Shown: positions 28,553 to 34,592 of the stretch, piece after piece
Layout of the letters: every line of letters starts with the position of its first letter
Position numbering within the stretch: the first letter of the stretch is position 1
From: an uncultured Gemmatimonadales bacterium
Lineage (GTDB): Bacteria > Gemmatimonadota > Gemmatimonadetes > Longimicrobiales > RSA9
Length of the DNA stretch: 64,000 nt
Direction of reading: 5' to 3'
Assembly: GCA_963741945.1 (NCBI GenBank)
Contig: CAVUKA010000007.1
Coordinates: 1 to 64,000 of the forward strand
The notes under the pieces: model-generated
Database searches by the model: none
What the model saw: only the letters and a program-made list of their open reading frames with translations
Told to the model about the DNA's origin: nothing
Made by a program: the position numbers and the translations under genes

Positions 28553-29221
28553 TCAGCGCTCCCGCAGGCGGCCGTCCCGGAGCACCAGCACGCGGTCGGC
28601 CAGTGGCACGGCTTCCTCACTGTGCGTCACGATCAGCACCGTCTTCCCCGCCGAGCGCGCCAGCCGCTCCATGAGCCCCAGCACCGTGCGGCCGGTCTCC
28701 CGGTCCAGGTTTCCCGTGGGCTCGTCCGCCAGGACCACCGCCGGCTCGTGCGACAGTGCCCGCGCCACTGCCACCCGCTGCTGCTCGCCGCCGGACAGCC
28801 GATCGGGGAACACGGCCGACCGATCGGCCAGGCCCACCCGGGAGAGCAGGTCGCGAGCCCGCGCATGATCACCGGGCGTGTCCCGACCGCTCAGCTCCAG
28901 CGGCAGGAGGAGATTTTCCTCCACGGTGAGGGTGGGTATCAGATTGAAGAACTGGAAGATGAACCCGATCCGGTCCCGTCTGAACAGCGTCCTTGCCCGC
29001 TCGCTTAGCGACGGCAGCGAGACACCATCGATCCGGACGTCCCCCGCCGTCGGGACGTCGATCCCGCTCACCACGTTCAGCAGCGTGGTCTTCCCGGAAC
29101 CGCTCGGGCCGAGCAGCACCACGATCTCACCGTCGTCCACCCGCATGCCGAGATCCCGGAACACCACGCGCTCCGTTCCCGCTTCCGGGTAGCTCTTCGT
29201 CAATCCTTCGATCTCGATCAT
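28553..29221 (-). CDS. ABC transporter ATP-binding protein (LolD/AttE-like)
   Basis: [36 protein letters not shown]. Confidence 0.95.
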
Positions 29222-29320
29222 CGCGGCGGGAAGATAATCGGTACGGGGGATGACCATAAGGCGGCGAACGGGTTCCCCCACTCGCCGCCTCGATGGCCCT
29301 GCCGTTCTTACCGCCGCTGC

Positions 29321-29524
29321 CTACGACGTCATCCGCTGCACCAGCAACGCGCCCACCGGCACCGCGATCAGCGCGCTCAACGCCAGTCCGCTACGCGTGG
29401 TCAGGAGCGCTTTCGCTCCCTTCGCCGCCACGAGCGCCTTCGCGCCCTTCACGGGATGACGCACCACGAACGTGGTTTTCGGAGCCTTCGTGTATCCGAT
29501 CAGGGTCGCCAGCTTGCCAATCAT
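29321..29524 (-). CDS. Small basic protein with C-terminal hydrophobic helix (67 aa)
   Basis: GGAGGA RBS before the ATG at 29524; MIGKLATLIGYTKAPK...LALSALIAVPVGALLV. Confidence 0.7.
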   Translation of the reverse strand: MIGKLATLIGYTKAPKTTFVVRHPVKGAKALVAAKGAKALLTTRSGLALSALIAVPVGALLVQRMTS

Positions 29525-29603
29525 GCACCCTCCTCCATTCGGGGGTCGATTCCAGCCTCGCTTCCCCCACACACAGTGCAAGCTTCATGCGAGGTCGAAG
29601 GGC

Positions 29604-30014
29604 CTAAAACCCCCACGCTCCACGCGTTATGAGCTCCAGGCTGTTCCCCTCCGGATCCCGGAAATACACCGAAGCGCCGCCACTCGGCCAGCTGTGCTCC
29701 TGCTCGATCTCCACGCCCGCCAGGCGCAGGTGGCGACGCCAGGCGTCGAGCGCATCCGCGTCCGGGACTTCGAGCGCCACGTGCCCGGGGCCCTCGGCGC
29801 CGTGCGGCGGGACATCGCCACCGGGCTCTGCCGTGGCGCGGGCATCGAACACCAGCAGCAGGTCGCGGCCGGCGCGGAAGAAGACATGACGGCCGGGCTT
29901 GCGGCCGATGAGCTGCAGGCCGAGCCGTCGCCAGAATCGCTCGGCGCGGGCCAGATCGTGGACGTACAGGGCGGCCTCGTGAATGCCGCCGAGCGGCGGA
30001 TGGATTTCTGCCAT
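29604..30014 (-). CDS. VOC/glyoxalase family protein
   Basis: IHEAALYVHDLARAERF, HVAL, SVYFRDPEGNSLELI. Confidence 0.9.
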   Translation of the reverse strand: MAEIHPPLGGIHEAALYVHDLARAERFWRRLGLQLIGRKPGRHVFFRAGRDLLLVFDARATAEPGGDVPPHGAEGPGHVALEVPDADALDAWRRHLRLAGVEIEQEHSWPSGGASVYFRDPEGNSLELITRGAWGF

Positions 30015-30015
30015 G

Positions 30016-30954
30016 CTAGGTCACGGGTGTGAGGAGCGGTTCTCCGCGAATGCCCCGGAGCAGGTTCTGCCAGGCGAGATCGAACATGGCCTGGCGCGTC
30101 TCGCAGGTGGCGCTGCCGAGGTGCGGGAGGAGGACCACGTTGTCGAGCCCCAGGAGATCGTCCGGAACGCGCGGCTCCTCGGCGTAGACGTCCAGCCCGG
30201 CGCGTAGGCGCCCCGCCACGAGCTCCCGCACCAGGGCCTTCTGGTCCACCACATCCCCGCGGGCGGTGTTGACGAGAATGGCGCCATCGCGCAGGGAAGC
30301 GAGCACCCCGGCGTCGATGATGCCCCGCGTGCCCGGCGTGGACGCCAGGGTCACGGCGAGCACGTCCGCCCGGGCGGCCAGCTCCCCGAGCTCCCCTGTC
30401 CGCTCCGCTCCGACCTCGCTCTCCCACGCCGTGTGGCGGCCGCGTCCCCAGTATGCGACGCGCATCCCGAACGCTCCCGCCCGACGTCCCACTTCCCGGC
30501 CGATCCGCCCGGCGCCGACCACTCCCAGCACCTTGCCGTCGAGCCCGGTCCCCATCAGCTGGGTGGGGGCCCACCCGGTCCACGCGCCACCGCGCACCAG
30601 GCGCTCGCCCTCGCCCACGCGCCGCGCCACGGCCAGGATGAGCGCCCACGTCAGCTCGGCCGTGGCGCCCGTGAGGACGTCCGGCGTATTGGACACGGCG
30701 ATCCCGCGGAGGCGAGCCGCATCGACCTCGACGTTGTCGTAGCCCACGGCCATGTTGGCGATCACCCGGAGCTGCGGCAGACGGTCCATCTCCGCGCCGC
30801 CGATCCGGCGGGTGAGGAGCGGGAGGATGCCGACGTGCGGTCCGCCGGCGGGGATTGCGTCCGCGGGATCCAGCAGGTCCACGGCCACGGAGTCGGGCGG
30901 CGAGTGCGCGTGCAGGAACTCCGCCACCTCGGACGAGACGAGGACCCGCATCAT
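30016..30954 (-). CDS. D-isomer 2-hydroxyacid (D-glycerate/glyoxylate) dehydrogenase
   Basis: AVGYDNV, SNTPDVLT.ATAEL, GAGRIG, NTARG, GLDVY..EP, PHLGSAT. Confidence 0.92.
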   Translation of the reverse strand: MMRVLVSSEVAEFLHAHSPPDSVAVDLLDPADAIPAGGPHVGILPLLTRRIGGAEMDRLPQLRVIANMAVGYDNVEVDAARLRGIAVSNTPDVLTGATAELTWALILAVARRVGEGERLVRGGAWTGWAPTQLMGTGLDGKVLGVVGAGRIGREVGRRAGAFGMRVAYWGRGRHTAWESEVGAERTGELGELAARADVLAVTLASTPGTRGIIDAGVLASLRDGAILVNTARGDVVDQKALVRELVAGRLRAGLDVYAEEPRVPDDLLGLDNVVLLPHLGSATCETRQAMFDLAWQNLLRGIRGEPLLTPVT

Positions 30955-31427
30955 CGCCGTGCCCGGAAGAAGTCGCGCAGGAGGTCACCTGCCTCGTCGG
31001 CGAGAACGCCCGGCGTGATCTCGATGCGGTGGTTCAGGCGGGGGTCCTGGGCGAGATTGGCGAGCGAGCCGGCCATGCCGGCCTTCGGATCAGACGCGGC
31101 GTAGACCAGCCGTGCGATGCGTGCCAGCACCATCGCGCCGGCGCACATGGCGCACGGCTCGAGCGTGACGTAGAGCGTGGCGTCATTGAGCCACCAGTGA
31201 CCCTGGCGCTCCGCGGCCATGCGGAGCGCCAGGATCTCCGCGTGCGCGGTCGGATCATTCAGGCCGCGAGGCCGGTTGTGCGCCTCGGCCACGACCCCGC
31301 CGCCGGTCACCACCACGGCGCCAACGGGGACTTCATCCAGCGCCGCCGCCATTCCGGCCTGCAGGAGAGCCTGCCGCATCCAGCGCTCATCGTCCGGGTG
31401 CGGCGGGCTCGGCTCGAGCGCGTCCAT
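30951..31427 (-). CDS. tadA: tRNA adenosine(34) deaminase
   Basis: EVPVGAV, DPTAHAE, TLEPCAMC, DPKAG, FFRARR. Confidence 0.93.
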   Translation of the reverse strand: MDALEPSPPHPDDERWMRQALLQAGMAAALDEVPVGAVVVTGGGVVAEAHNRPRGLNDPTAHAEILALRMAAERQGHWWLNDATLYVTLEPCAMCAGAMVLARIARLVYAASDPKAGMAGSLANLAQDPRLNHRIEITPGVLADEAGDLLRDFFRARR

Positions 31428-31428
31428 G

Positions 31429-32103
31429 TCAGCCGGCGATCGCGCCTTCCGGCGATCCCTGCTGCTGGGCCAGGCCGGCCCGGGTATCGGTCCGGAGACG
31501 CCGGATCACGGCGGTGACACGACCCAGAACATCCACGCCCGTCCGCCGATTGATGGCCACGGCAGCCGCCGAGTGTCCGGCCGTCGCGAGCATGGGATCC
31601 CCCGTCTGCTCCCGCTGGATCCGACAGACCGTCGTCTCACCGGCGAGTCGGGCCACCACGATCTCGTTGTCATCCAGGCTCTCGACCGTGGCCGGCTCCA
31701 CGAGCAGAAGGTCGCCATCCCAGATCCCGGCGCTGCGCAGAGAGTTCCCCACCATCGAGACCAGGAAGGCCGCCGAGGAGCCTGCCAGCTTGCGGTCGAG
31801 GGTCAGCTTCTCGAGCGGGTCCTTGATGGACGGCTCGCTCAGGTGGACGTCGATGTGGGGGACGGAAACCACGTCGGCACCCAGATCGAGGCCGAGGAGG
31901 CGGACGCCCCGGGAGCGGGAGGAATCCCGCTCGATCCAGCCTTTGTTGGCCAGCGACTGGAGGAGCTCCGACACCGACTTGGTGCTCTTGATGTCGAACG
32001 CCGCACCGATCTCGCGGACGGACGGCTGGTATGTATGGCTGCGAACGTAGTCCGCGAGGTAGTCGAGGACGTCGCGCTCGAGACTGCTCAGAGCATCCGG
32101 CAT
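31429..32103 (-). CDS. lexA: LexA-like repressor with degenerate autocleavage machinery
   Basis: LexA wHTH (YQPSVREIG..F.IKS...LANKGWIER...SRGVRL) and S24 domain (GNSL..AGIWDGDLLLV...IVVARL); no Ala-Gly site and Cys at the catalytic Lys position. Confidence 0.8.
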   Translation of the reverse strand: MPDALSSLERDVLDYLADYVRSHTYQPSVREIGAAFDIKSTKSVSELLQSLANKGWIERDSSRSRGVRLLGLDLGADVVSVPHIDVHLSEPSIKDPLEKLTLDRKLAGSSAAFLVSMVGNSLRSAGIWDGDLLLVEPATVESLDDNEIVVARLAGETTVCRIQREQTGDPMLATAGHSAAAVAINRRTGVDVLGRVTAVIRRLRTDTRAGLAQQQGSPEGAIAG

Positions 32104-32105
32104 AA

Positions 32106-32178
32106 TTGCCCCTCCTGGGATCGAACCAGGACTCTCCTGATCCAGAGTCAGGCGTGTTGCCAATTACACCAAGGGGCA
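32106..32178 (-). tRNA. tRNA-Gln(CTG), CCA not encoded
   Basis: TGCCCCT-TG-GTGT AATTGGCA ACAC-G-CCTGA CTCTGGA TCAGG-AGAGT-CCTGG TTCGATC CCAGG-AGGGGCA-A cloverleaf, 73 nt. Confidence 0.96.
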
Positions 32179-32218
32179 GAACACGCGCCCGGCTCCCATA
32201 ACCGAATCGCGGGATGGG

Positions 32219-32247
32219 ATCGTAGAGTTGGCCGGTCCGGGTGTCAA
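32219..32247 (-). promoter_or_regulatory. sigma70 promoter for tRNA-Gln-lexA-tadA
   Basis: TTGACA-17 nt-TACGAT; the -35 box overlaps the gltX stop codon. Confidence 0.75.
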
Positions 32248-33707
32248 CCGGCGGCGGCCAGCGCCAGCACGCGCTGGCGCGCCGCATCCAGGCGCGCCAG
32301 CGTCCGATCCCGTCCCATCACGACGAGGACTTCGAAAATGCCGGGAGACACGGCCGCTCCGGTCACGGCCACCCGCACCGGGTGGATCAGCTTCCCCGCC
32401 CCGACACCGAGCTCCTCCGCCAGTGCGCGCAGCGCATCCTCCAGCGGCTGCTCCTCCCAGGCGTCGATGTCGGAATAGACGTCCCGGATGCGGGCGAGGC
32501 GGTCGGCCACGTCGGCGGGCTGCCGGGCCCAGTGCTTCTCGACGGCGGCCTCCTCGTATTCCACCCGCTCCGCCAGGTACGGCTCCGCCTGCGAGATAAT
32601 GTCGTCCACCGTCCGCGCCCGCGGCTTCAGCAGGTCGATCAGGCGCAGCAGCCATGGCCGGCGCTGCGCGAGATCTGCCGGTGCGGCAAGGCCGGCGCTG
32701 ATGAGGCGGTCCACCACCAGCGGCTCGAGCCGCTCGGGCGCGGCCGCGCTCAGGTACTGGCCGTTCAGCCACGCCAGCTTGTCCGTGTCGAATACCGCGC
32801 TCTTCTTCCCGATTCCATCCAGAGAGAAGCGGCGGGTCAGCTCGGGGAGCGTCATGATCTCCGTGTCGTCGCCCGACGACCAGCCCAGCAGGGCGAGGAA
32901 GTTGACCATCGCTTCCGGCAGGATCCCTTCCTCCCGGTACTGCCCCACGGCAGTGGCGCCATGCCGCTTGCTCAGCCGCTTCCCATCACTCCCCAGGATC
33001 ATGGGGACGTGGGCGAACGTCGGCCGCTCCCATTCCAGTGCTTCGTACAGCAGGATCTGCTTGGGCGTGTTCGAGAGGTGGTCGTCGCCCCGGATGACGT
33101 GCGTGATGCCCATCTCCCGGTCGTCGCTCACCACGGCCATGTTGTAGACGGGCGTCCCGTCGCTGCGCAGGACGATGAAGTCCTCGATGTCCGCGTTGTC
33201 GAAGCGGGTGCGTCCGTGGACCGCGTCCTCCCACACGGTCTCCCCGCCGGGCACCGCGAACCGCACCGTGTACGCCTCCCCCGCCGCCGCACGCTGCTCG
33301 CCCTCCTCCGGCGAGACCGTGAGGCGGCAGTGGCGGTCGTAGCGGTAGCCTTCTCCCCTGGATTCCGCCGCCCTGCGCTTCTCATCCAGCGATTCCGGCG
33401 TGCAGAAGCAGCGGTACCCGTGCCCGGACGCCAGCAGTCGCAGCGCGTCCCGGCGGTGCCGGTCGAGCCCGTCCGCCTGGTGCACGGGCCCTTCGTCCCA
33501 GTCCAGACCGAGCCACTCCATGCCATCGAGGATCGCCTGCGTCATGGCGTCGCTCGACCGCTCACGGTCCGTGTCCTCGATGCGCAGGATGAACGTCCCG
33601 CCGTGATGCCGTGCGAACAGCCAGTTGAAAAGCGCCGTGCGCGCGCCACCCACGTGCAGGTACCCGGTTGGTGACGGCGCGAAGCGCACCCGAACCCTCT
33701 CGCTCAC
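32244..33707 (-). CDS. gltX: Glutamate--tRNA ligase
   Basis: RFAPSPTGYLHVGG, RIEDTD, IRGDDHLSNT, RLSKR, PVRVAVTG...SP. Confidence 0.97.
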   Translation of the reverse strand: MSERVRVRFAPSPTGYLHVGGARTALFNWLFARHHGGTFILRIEDTDRERSSDAMTQAILDGMEWLGLDWDEGPVHQADGLDRHRRDALRLLASGHGYRCFCTPESLDEKRRAAESRGEGYRYDRHCRLTVSPEEGEQRAAAGEAYTVRFAVPGGETVWEDAVHGRTRFDNADIEDFIVLRSDGTPVYNMAVVSDDREMGITHVIRGDDHLSNTPKQILLYEALEWERPTFAHVPMILGSDGKRLSKRHGATAVGQYREEGILPEAMVNFLALLGWSSGDDTEIMTLPELTRRFSLDGIGKKSAVFDTDKLAWLNGQYLSAAAPERLEPLVVDRLISAGLAAPADLAQRRPWLLRLIDLLKPRARTVDDIISQAEPYLAERVEYEEAAVEKHWARQPADVADRLARIRDVYSDIDAWEEQPLEDALRALAEELGVGAGKLIHPVRVAVTGAAVSPGIFEVLVVMGRDRTLARLDAARQRVLALAAAG

Positions 33708-33818
33708 TGCTCCTCCTCGACCCGTTCCCGCCGATGCTATCCCGTCACTACGGGGCCCCGGCCTCCCTGTCCCGCCGGCCATGGCCAGCTCCGAACACCT
33801 GCCGCGCTACCGGCCGCC

Positions 33819-34592
33819 CTACCAGCCGCCCCGGCGGCCGTGATGGCGGCCGCGCGGCCGCTCCGACCGCTCTTCAATGCGATCGAGGCGGCGCTGCATT
33901 CGCTGTTCCACCCTCGATCGCGCGTCACTTCCACGCTCGCCTCGATCCCTCACCTTGATCGAGACCCCGCCCATGAGCGCGAACCCCGTGACCCGGATGA
34001 CCGGCGCGTCCGGGGCCGGATCGACCTCGAGTTCGGATTCCTGGTCGAAGCCGCCCATCAGAGCGAATCCCTGCGTCTCCACGTGCACGTCGGGCGGCAC
34101 GGTGATGTCGACGCCGCCCCAGAAGGCGAAGCAGTTGATCTCGGTCACGCCCGACTTCAGGACCGCGTCGCGGAAATCCAGCTCCACGCCGCCCATGACG
34201 GCCACGGCCATCATCTGCGACGGCGGGGCCCACCGTCCGGCCCTTCGCGTTCCGCCCAGCACCGCGACCGCTACATGCCCGGCCTCGCGAAGGGAGCCCG
34301 ATGGCCGCTCGCCCCGGTCGCCGGCAGGTGCCGGTATACCACCCCGCGCCGCCGTCGATTCCGATCGTGCGACCGGGCGCGTGGCGGGCCGTCGGGCCGG
34401 AGGCGGGGCGGGTGCGGGCGCGCGCAGATCCGCCAGCAGCGCGTCCAGCTCGCCGCGATTCTGCGCGGCACGGGCGCGCTCCAGCCGCCGCTCGAGCTCG
34501 CCCATGGAGAGGGCGTCCTCGGCGAACTGACGGCAGAGCGCGTCGATGGTGTCCTCGCGCGCGTTCCGGAGCGTGATGGGGCGTTCGTCCAT
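33819..34592 (-). CDS. DUF1707 (SHOCT-like) plus LiaF-like domain protein
   Basis: REDTIDALCRQFAEDALS..ELERRLERA...LLADL; AVMGGVELDFRDA, GGVDITVP. Confidence 0.8.
   Translation of the reverse strand: MDERPITLRNAREDTIDALCRQFAEDALSMGELERRLERARAAQNRGELDALLADLRAPAPAPPPARRPATRPVARSESTAARGGIPAPAGDRGERPSGSLREAGHVAVAVLGGTRRAGRWAPPSQMMAVAVMGGVELDFRDAVLKSGVTEINCFAFWGGVDITVPPDVHVETQGFALMGGFDQESELEVDPAPDAPVIRVTGFALMGGVSIKVRDRGERGSDARSRVEQRMQRRLDRIEERSERPRGRHHGRRGGW

Follow-up and report, generated by a model that had tools for sequence, protein, structure and literature searches.

The window analyzed here is a DNA stretch of 64,000 nucleotides (nt) from an uncultured Gemmatimonadales bacterium (contig CAVUKA010000007.1 of assembly GCA_963741945.1), whose genome is referred to as G000. 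In this window, a tRNA-Gln(CTG) gene directly abuts the start codon of a gene for a LexA-like repressor, and a perfect Shine-Dalgarno (SD) sequence, AGGAGG, lies within the tRNA itself. All features of the locus are located on the minus strand, and all coordinates are window positions (Table 1).

Table 1. Features of the tRNA-Gln/lexA-like locus, with the evidence for each.
Feature	Position	Strand	Evidence
gltX (glutamate--tRNA ligase)	32244..33782	-	TIGR00464 523 bits, cut-off 290; Pfam tRNA-synt_1c + Anticodon_2
Sigma-70-type promoter TTGACA-17-TACGAT	32219..32247	-	10/12 consensus positions matched
Pre-tRNA 5' leader, ~34 nt, inferred	32179..32212	-	Assumes a transcription start site (TSS) 7 nt past the -10 hexamer
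tRNA-Gln(CTG), discriminator A at 32106, CCA not encoded	32106..32178	-	ARAGORN; Rfam RF00005
AGGAGG within the tRNA (T-stem 3' strand + acceptor 3' strand)	32111..32116	-	Sequence; 16S complementarity
TT dinucleotide: tRNA 3' trailer and entire mRNA 5' leader once the tRNA is excised	32104..32105	-	Sequence; role inferred
LexA-like repressor gene, 224 aa, winged helix-turn-helix (wHTH) + S24	31429..32103	-	PF01726, PF00717; TIGR00498; E. coli LexA alignment
tadA (tRNA adenosine(34) deaminase)	30951..31427	-	NF008113 186.5 bits, cut-off 150
D-2-hydroxyacid dehydrogenase family gene	30016..30954	-	Pfam 2-Hacid_dh_C + 2-Hacid_dh
VOC/glyoxalase-family gene, last in the packed unit	29604..30014	-	Pfam Glyoxalase 2.2e-15

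The tRNA scores 64 bits against RF00005, for which the Rfam gathering score is 29. Its 3' part reads ...CCUGG-UUCGAUC-CCAGG-AGGGGCA-A, and the DNA ends ...CCC-AGGAGG-GGCAA. The AGGAGG (32116..32111) straddles two stems, its first three bases ending the T-stem 3' strand and its other three beginning the acceptor 3' strand, and is fully complementary to the canonical 3' end of the 16S rRNA (...GGATCACCTCCTTTCT / ...CACCUCCUUUCU). The ATG of the lexA-like gene (32103..32101) follows 7 nt from the AGGAGG and 2 nt from the discriminator. An earlier sequence-only reading of this DNA had described the promoter, the tRNA, the AGGAGG inside the T and acceptor 3' strand and the TT-ATG spacing; sequence, ARAGORN and Rfam bear it out in every detail, and the anatomy of the junction is established.

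Two promoter-like sites were found in the region, compared to 0.2 +/- 0.5 in shuffled sequences. The scan, which detects the sigma-70-type consensus only, returned no minus-strand promoter-like site within the tRNA or between 32219 and the ATG. A sequence scan of 29000..34500 gave 0 terminator-like sites, as had been claimed for the interval between the tRNA and the lexA-like gene. The downstream genes abut or overlap, again as described before: the lexA-like gene and tadA are 1 nt apart, tadA and the dehydrogenase gene share a 4-nt overlap (ATGA), and the dehydrogenase and VOC genes are separated by 1 nt. With the tRNA and the open reading frame (ORF) on the same strand, a promoter upstream and neither a promoter nor a terminator between them, the predicted architecture is that of a tRNA-mRNA co-transcription unit of the tufB type, from which we infer co-transcription. 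The TGA stop of gltX is embedded in the -35 hexamer TTGACA (32242-32247) of the tRNA promoter, and gltX has no terminator after it; read-through from gltX into the tRNA and the operon is possible.

The ATG at 32103 is the real start, because homology to E. coli LexA begins at residue 4 (residue 3 of E. coli LexA), the Pfam domain LexA_DNA_bind spans residues 5-66, and no in-frame start follows until a GTG at codon 44, which lies within that domain. No alternative start codon exists in frame ahead of this GTG, and a TTG at 32163 falls inside the tRNA. A start codon further downstream, which the sequence-only reading had named as a finding that would count against it, is hence not borne out. In a crude scan of G000, no further ATG start was found within 20 nt (<=20 nt) of a tRNA end; GTG and TTG starts close behind other tRNAs look spurious.

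The encoded protein carries both LexA domains (PF01726, 1.9e-16; PF00717, 2e-11), but scores 109.9 bits against the LexA equivalog model TIGR00498, below the curated cut-off of 110.95. Aligned with E. coli LexA, the G000 protein reads L-S instead of Ala-Gly at the cleavage site and has a Cys at the position of Lys156. The catalytic Ser is present in G000 and is replaced by G, A or N elsewhere in the fused clade, where the Lys position is C, R, W or Q and the cleavage site is lost. In the sister family f3, the gltX-linked orthologues retain the AAG site, the GDSM Ser and the VKRY Lys. A canonical LexA is additionally present in every genome searched, with 27-33% identity to the LexA-like protein. 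The gene is thus a second LexA paralogue, best called a predicted non-cleavable LexA-like repressor. The label "lexA-like" given previously holds for the wHTH and S24 domains, but "lexA" alone is too strong, the Ala-Gly site and the catalytic Lys being lost. A gltX-linked LexA paralogue without cleavage site, without Lys and often without Ser occurs in the window's family and in another family.

The junction pattern CCAGGAGGGGCAA-NN-ATGCC was found in 6 of 73 genomes of the window's family, distributed over three genera (G000 and G001; G005 and G071; G087 and G021); the reversed control pattern gave 1 match, so the recurrence exceeds what chance would give. An intact tRNA stands exactly 2 nt ahead of the ATG in five of these six genomes, which are called fused here; the sixth, G021, retains only a fossil of the tRNA. 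The spacing typical of tRNA punctuation is thus found in all five (2 nt in 5/5). In a sample of 401 genomes covering the phylum, the junction was present only in two members of the window's family, one of which is G000. In a named species collection, 3 of 117 among the matches listed stand in a tRNA or fossil context (L054, L156 and L098), two of them bearing Gemmatimonadetes and Gemmatimonadaceae labels. The other matches listed are due to chance or to a Bacteroidota coding sequence starting MPVYD or MPIYD. The latter accounts for L049, L051, L056 and ~30 other loci, many from Bacteroidota, in which the pattern coincides with coding sequence (MPVYD/MPIYD...RHEQGA) and has no link to a tRNA; we take the product to resemble acetolactate synthase, an identity that no search provided. 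A single metagenome match was read as chance, as the matched stretch contains no tRNA and no LexA-like start. The bacteria that carry the fusion are a small, soil-type group.

In a maximum-likelihood tree of 31 proteins (midpoint-rooted; L028 was excluded as truncated), the LexA-like proteins of the six fused or fossil genomes group in a single clade (support 99/98). Their identity to the G000 protein is about 62-80%. The promoter elements TTGACAC and TAC..T are invariant in 6/6 fused or fossil genomes. The pre-tRNA leaders of the five fused genomes are 32-34 nt long under the same TSS assumption (7 nt past the -10), but their sequences have diverged and have almost nothing in common beyond the promoter hexamers. 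The tRNA, the 2-nt spacer and the ATG have nevertheless kept their register across the clade. By these comparisons, the fusion arose once, in the ancestor of the three genera, and is a derived state that has been conserved. Four unpublished genomes (G016, G017, G020 and G026) were included; none is among the six, and no key claim depends on them. G017 (L021) and G026 (L017) provide 2 of the 31 tree rows and also enter the locus, spacing, synteny, LexA-site and SD counts, and G016 and G020 enter only the relative-search and junction-pattern tallies.

The LexA-like protein was searched in 40 relatives of the same order and in G000, which returned 30 loci. The tRNA-Gln(CTG) lies directly upstream of the lexA-like gene in 9 of the 30, all in the window's own family; two more fused genomes were added, giving 11 lexA-linked copies. 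All 11 share the identical 3' end CCCAGGAGGGGCAA, AGGAGG included, and the same 3' end is present in the second tRNA-Gln(CTG) of G000, which is not linked to the lexA-like gene. That copy lies outside the window, in an array of 19 tRNA genes within ~2.4 kb (G000:C1:1189526-1191883), and differs from the window copy at a few positions, including a compensatory 27-43 pair.

In six other related genera, the tRNA is separated from the ATG by a spacer of 45, 53, 85, 112, 116 or 128 nt. The constancy of spacing in relatives therefore holds for one clade, being an invariant 2 nt in the five fused genomes but 45-128 nt in these genera. The 128-nt spacer (L030, in G013) holds a GC-rich hairpin, GCGCGGAGGCA...TGCCTCCGCGC, followed by CTTTTCC; the element is terminator- or attenuator-like and ends ~27 nt before the lexA-like ATG. 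An ATG start is defined in 22 unfused orthologues. A GGAGG of the gene's own, beginning between -9 and -11, is present in 14 of these, and at least a GGAG or GAGG core in 18. The gene family thus normally uses a strong SD of its own. The AGGAGG, on the other hand, is a property of the tRNA, because it also occurs in copies with a spacer and in the unlinked copy of the array; it has not arisen for the lexA-like gene and was at most co-opted. The idea that it is a gene-specific ribosome-binding site was consequently not upheld, given its presence in 11/11 linked copies and the array copy and the GGAGG that 14/22 unfused orthologues have for themselves.

The fused tRNA-Gln(CTG) still appears to be a working tRNA, because its cloverleaf is fully paired, it shows a compensatory pair and it is the only copy in one genome. 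The canonical cloverleaf was imposed before the pairs were counted, as RNAalifold had not returned it; on this basis, 189/189 pair cells are standard (21/21 pairs in 9 distinct sequences from the 11 lexA-linked copies). One compensatory change, from C27-G43 to U27-A43, occurred within the fused clade, and all other variation is located in loops. In G087, a genome 98% complete, no tRNA-Gln(CTG) other than the fused one was found; there are two copies in each of G001 and G071 and three in G005.

CCA is encoded in 0 of the 57 tRNAs called by ARAGORN in G000, and in 0/51 among the calls of <=92 nt, so the CCA-less nature of the tRNA assumed by the sequence-only reading applies to the whole genome. 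Trailers were counted for these 51 calls, longer ones being excluded. A T is found at +1 or +2 past the discriminator in 46/51 (21 trailers start with T and 25 with CT), and none (0/51) starts with CC. Among the longer calls, six of 95-101 nt look doubtful (e.g., C1:1139126-1139220 and C5:363416-363516), and one further call, a tRNA-SeC of 97 nt, is probably real. G000 encodes an RNase Z (336.9 bits vs. a cut-off of 293) and a nucleotidyltransferase family of the CCA-adding type, in agreement with the RNase Z route proposed earlier. Bacterial RNase Z is described, in PMC7479834, as cutting directly after the discriminator, with trailers starting with CC being cleaved poorly or inhibitory. The junction dinucleotide is TT, CT, CT, CT and CT in the five fused genomes, and CC occurs only in the tRNA-less G021. 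The fused junctions match the genome-wide trailer pattern, which looks to be of the RNase Z type.

Because the tRNA appears functional and no CCA is encoded, its excision by RNase Z would be needed. Maturation must then cut 2 nt before the AUG, by which the AGGAGG would be severed from the ORF and a 5'-YUAUG mRNA left. Control of repressor translation through the folding or maturation of the tRNA, as the sequence-only reading proposed, would be one possible consequence. Before such a cut, the SD is predicted to be sequestered in the helix of the T and acceptor stems, with an unpaired probability of the AGGAGG in the precursor of 0.03-0.17. The SD is also mostly paired by prediction in 8/10 unfused orthologues tested, against a background of 70% GC; precursor folding energies are not discriminating, because most of these SDs are predicted to be paired too. 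No conserved alternative fold or ligand-sensing element was identified, no search aimed at alternative folds having been made.

At the G021 locus, the same TTGACAC-N17-TACGAT promoter is found upstream, but there is no tRNA. The sequence reads ...gGCCCC|AGGAGGGGCAAcc-ATG (leader-GCCCC|AGGAGGGGCAAC), in which tRNA positions 2-6 are joined to positions 62-73, so that 17 nt of tRNA sequence, including the AGGAGG, are kept ahead of the ATG. The putative deletion took place between CCCC in the 5' acceptor strand and CCC in the T arm, the signature expected of microhomology. The lexA-like ORF is intact, with 66% identity to G000. In this genome, the former tRNA 3' end would now be an ordinary SD in a 5' untranslated region (UTR) of ~36 nt. 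No tRNA-Gln(CTG) was found anywhere in G021, which may be an assembly gap (630 contigs, 92% complete).

The following scheme would account for these observations. One promoter, possibly together with read-through from gltX, would produce a chimeric RNA composed of a ~34-nt leader, tRNA-Gln(CUG), UU and the lexA-like-tadA-dehydrogenase-VOC mRNA. In the ancestor of the three genera, a deletion would have removed the 45-128-nt spacer, including the gene's own GGAGG. Loss of the spacer through recombination between the GGAGG of the tRNA and that of the gene was rejected, the tRNA 3' end past the GGAGG being intact. RNase P and RNase Z would excise the tRNA, and the RNase Z cut after A73 would leave a UUAUG... 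mRNA with a 5'-monophosphate. Near-leaderless translation of this processed mRNA would be the main route of expression; probably inefficient, it would suit a repressor transcribed from a promoter of tRNA strength. The embedded AGGAGG would be usable only on a minority of transcripts, those still unfolded or unprocessed. It would nonetheless be a competent SD at the right distance, becoming a true SD only after loss of the tRNA, as in G021. Regarding the cleavage site and the RNA species translated, we infer, tentatively and at a little short of an even chance, that the locus is a bacterial tRNA-punctuated unit in which the processed mRNA with its 2-nt leader is translated, in preference to the precursor.

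Genome-wide start regions provide a context for this preference. Before candidate ATG starts in G000, the motif TANNNT peaks at -12 and -13 (70 and 51 occurrences vs. a background of ~15-20), and complete TTGNNN-N16-18-TANNNT promoters are concentrated 5-9 nt ahead of ATGs. A minority of genes in the SD-using, 70% GC genome may thus be leaderless. In Caulobacter, a preprint (bioRxiv 10.1101/2020.05.06.081141) gives a 2-nt leader about a quarter of the leaderless efficiency, with the fit 0.45 x i^-0.91. Furthermore, the unit must be usefully expressed, because tadA is the only bona fide copy and lies 1 nt behind the lexA-like gene. In the own-genome search, tadA was the only G000 copy above the cut-off; it has no evident SD of its own, and tRNA-Arg(ACG) is present in the genome.

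Several points weigh against translation of the processed mRNA. A 2-nt leader and a 5'-monophosphate each lower leaderless translation or stability in the model bacteria studied. The leaderless signature is crude, obtained with no gene caller, and would cover no more than a few per cent of genes; distinct SD peaks appear in the same genome-wide start-region counts. All fused genomes derive from one event, and the invariant 2-nt spacing could hence be a frozen accident. The G021 fossil shows that the tRNA-derived AGGAGG can serve alone as a ribosome-binding site. The GGAGG of the fused gene, at -12, is only 1-2 nt beyond the ancestral SD (-10 or -11), a position to be expected if initiation on the precursor were SD-led. 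Finally, an internal promoter of tadA may exist, which would void the argument from its essentiality.

The main alternative is precisely such SD-led translation on the unprocessed precursor, in which the AGGAGG within the tRNA serves the 30S subunit before the tRNA is folded and excised, or in place of these steps. A given transcript would then become either a tRNA or a translated mRNA, and the balance would set the levels of repressor and TadA. The perfect complementarity of the AGGAGG to the 16S 3' end fits this idea, as does its location 7 nt ahead of the ATG, no more than 1-2 nt off the place of the ancestral SD in the gene family. Yet the AGGAGG is equally present where the tRNA lies 45-128 nt away or is unlinked, and was not shaped for an SD role; any close abutment of tRNA-Gln puts it in the SD window, and the spacing match is not independent evidence. 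All six of its bases lie in T and acceptor helices of a fully paired cloverleaf (with the low unpaired probability given above), and, from general knowledge, local helices would form much more quickly than the 30S subunit binds. A strong promoter is plausible, as it has to supply a tRNA, and even rare initiation could suffice. The G021 fossil retains exactly the AGGAGG before an intact ORF, but is compatible with both routes, translation of the processed mRNA and of the precursor. Overall, the precursor route is considered unlikely, though it is the most serious competitor.

The juxtaposition could also be neutral for the mRNA, with expression coming mainly from another transcript, e.g., from an unrecognised promoter in the tRNA or the lexA-like gene. 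tadA and the downstream genes would be driven internally, and the lexA-like gene would be weakly expressed or decaying. The loss of the cleavage site and of the catalytic Lys and the variable Ser position in the fused clade would agree with decay, and the limitation of the promoter scan to the sigma-70-type consensus leaves room for another promoter. On the other hand, the lexA-like ORF is intact across the clade at the 62-80% identity mentioned, its wHTH is well conserved, no minus-strand promoter-like site lies between 32219 and the ATG, and tadA, 1 nt downstream here, follows in 30/32 loci across the order. This neutrality is therefore regarded as improbable. That the fossil, and possibly the tight junction too, are assembly artefacts of metagenome-derived genomes is hardly credible: the fossil is known from the fragmented G021 and one record of a metagenome-assembled genome with the same junction (L098), but it lies mid-contig and carries a microhomology-deletion signature, not that of a contig join, and five separate assemblies show the intact junction, G000 (8 contigs) and G001 (6 contigs) among them.

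The order gltX, (tRNA-Gln), lexA-like, tadA is conserved across the order, with tadA downstream in 30/32 loci and gltX upstream in 25/32. A functional tie of the tRNA to gltX and tadA, proposed in the sequence-only reading, proved weak. TadA acts on tRNA-Arg(ACG). The charging of tRNA-Gln by the gltX product via transamidation was dropped as a specific link, since G000 has a glutaminyl-tRNA synthetase (GlnRS, 680 bits), although gatB is also present. The GlnRS match stands together with a GatB C-terminal (YqeY-like) match in one open frame of 1011 aa (G000:C6:220992-223253), the GlnRS/YqeY fusion type named in NCBIfam NF011291.

The locus and its relatives present three states in a natural series, namely a spacer that carries its own SD, a start codon to which a tRNA is fused, and a tRNA remnant acting as SD. 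With this series one can ask if initiation is blocked by a folded tRNA, and if leaderless translation of RNase Z products takes place in a bacterium that uses SDs. The series also illustrates how one translation signal can take the place of another as a genome is streamlined. Supply of a tRNA is coupled by this arrangement to expression of a repressor and of TadA, an essential tRNA-editing enzyme. With somewhat less assurance than the punctuated unit itself, it can be proposed that RNase Z is an obligatory mRNA-maturation enzyme for the tadA operon, in a mitochondria-style punctuation with SD-less translation, and that a tRNA 3' end can be converted into a ribosome-binding site after deletion of the tRNA body. 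If true, tRNA genes could seed new translation signals through a G021-type conversion, and bacteria could use mitochondria-style tRNA punctuation, with RNase Z required for maturation of an essential mRNA.

To our knowledge, a tRNA abutting a start codon such that its excision makes the front end of an mRNA is typical of mitochondria and rare in bacteria. Mitochondrial tRNA punctuation was reportedly described by Ojala, Montoya and Attardi in 1981. As in mitochondria, the tRNA directly abuts a coding sequence; there, excision by RNase P and RNase Z sets the mRNA 5' end and gives leaderless or near-leaderless mRNAs. Here, in contrast, the host is a free-living bacterium that has a canonical anti-SD and genes that use SDs, one junction is concerned rather than the whole genome, a 2-nt leader would remain, and a perfect SD lies within the tRNA. 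In tufB-type operons, tRNA genes likewise head a protein-coding operon from one promoter, but behind the tRNA the mRNA retains a 5' UTR and SD of its own. The fused clade has no such UTR remaining, whereas the six related genera with spacers of 45-128 nt resemble the tufB state. In full-text literature searches, which are not proof of absence from print, no bacterial tRNA was found that holds the next gene's only SD in its own 3' strand with the start codon 2 nt past the discriminator.

Leaderless mRNAs of repressors, namely lambda cI transcribed from PRM and tetR of Tn1721, are mentioned in PMC3848588. As in these cases, a repressor of the LexA/cI type would be translated from an essentially leader-free mRNA. 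The 5' end of the lambda cI and tetR mRNAs results from initiation at the AUG; here, it is proposed to result from an RNase Z cut, with a 5'-monophosphate and 2 extra nt. As is generally known of RNA thermometers and translational riboswitches, the SD would be locked in a stable helix, but the masking structure here would be a functional tRNA that gets excised. Operons joining tRNA and mRNA and tRNA punctuation are both already known; the present locus is a bacterial variant of both, with an informative evolutionary series.

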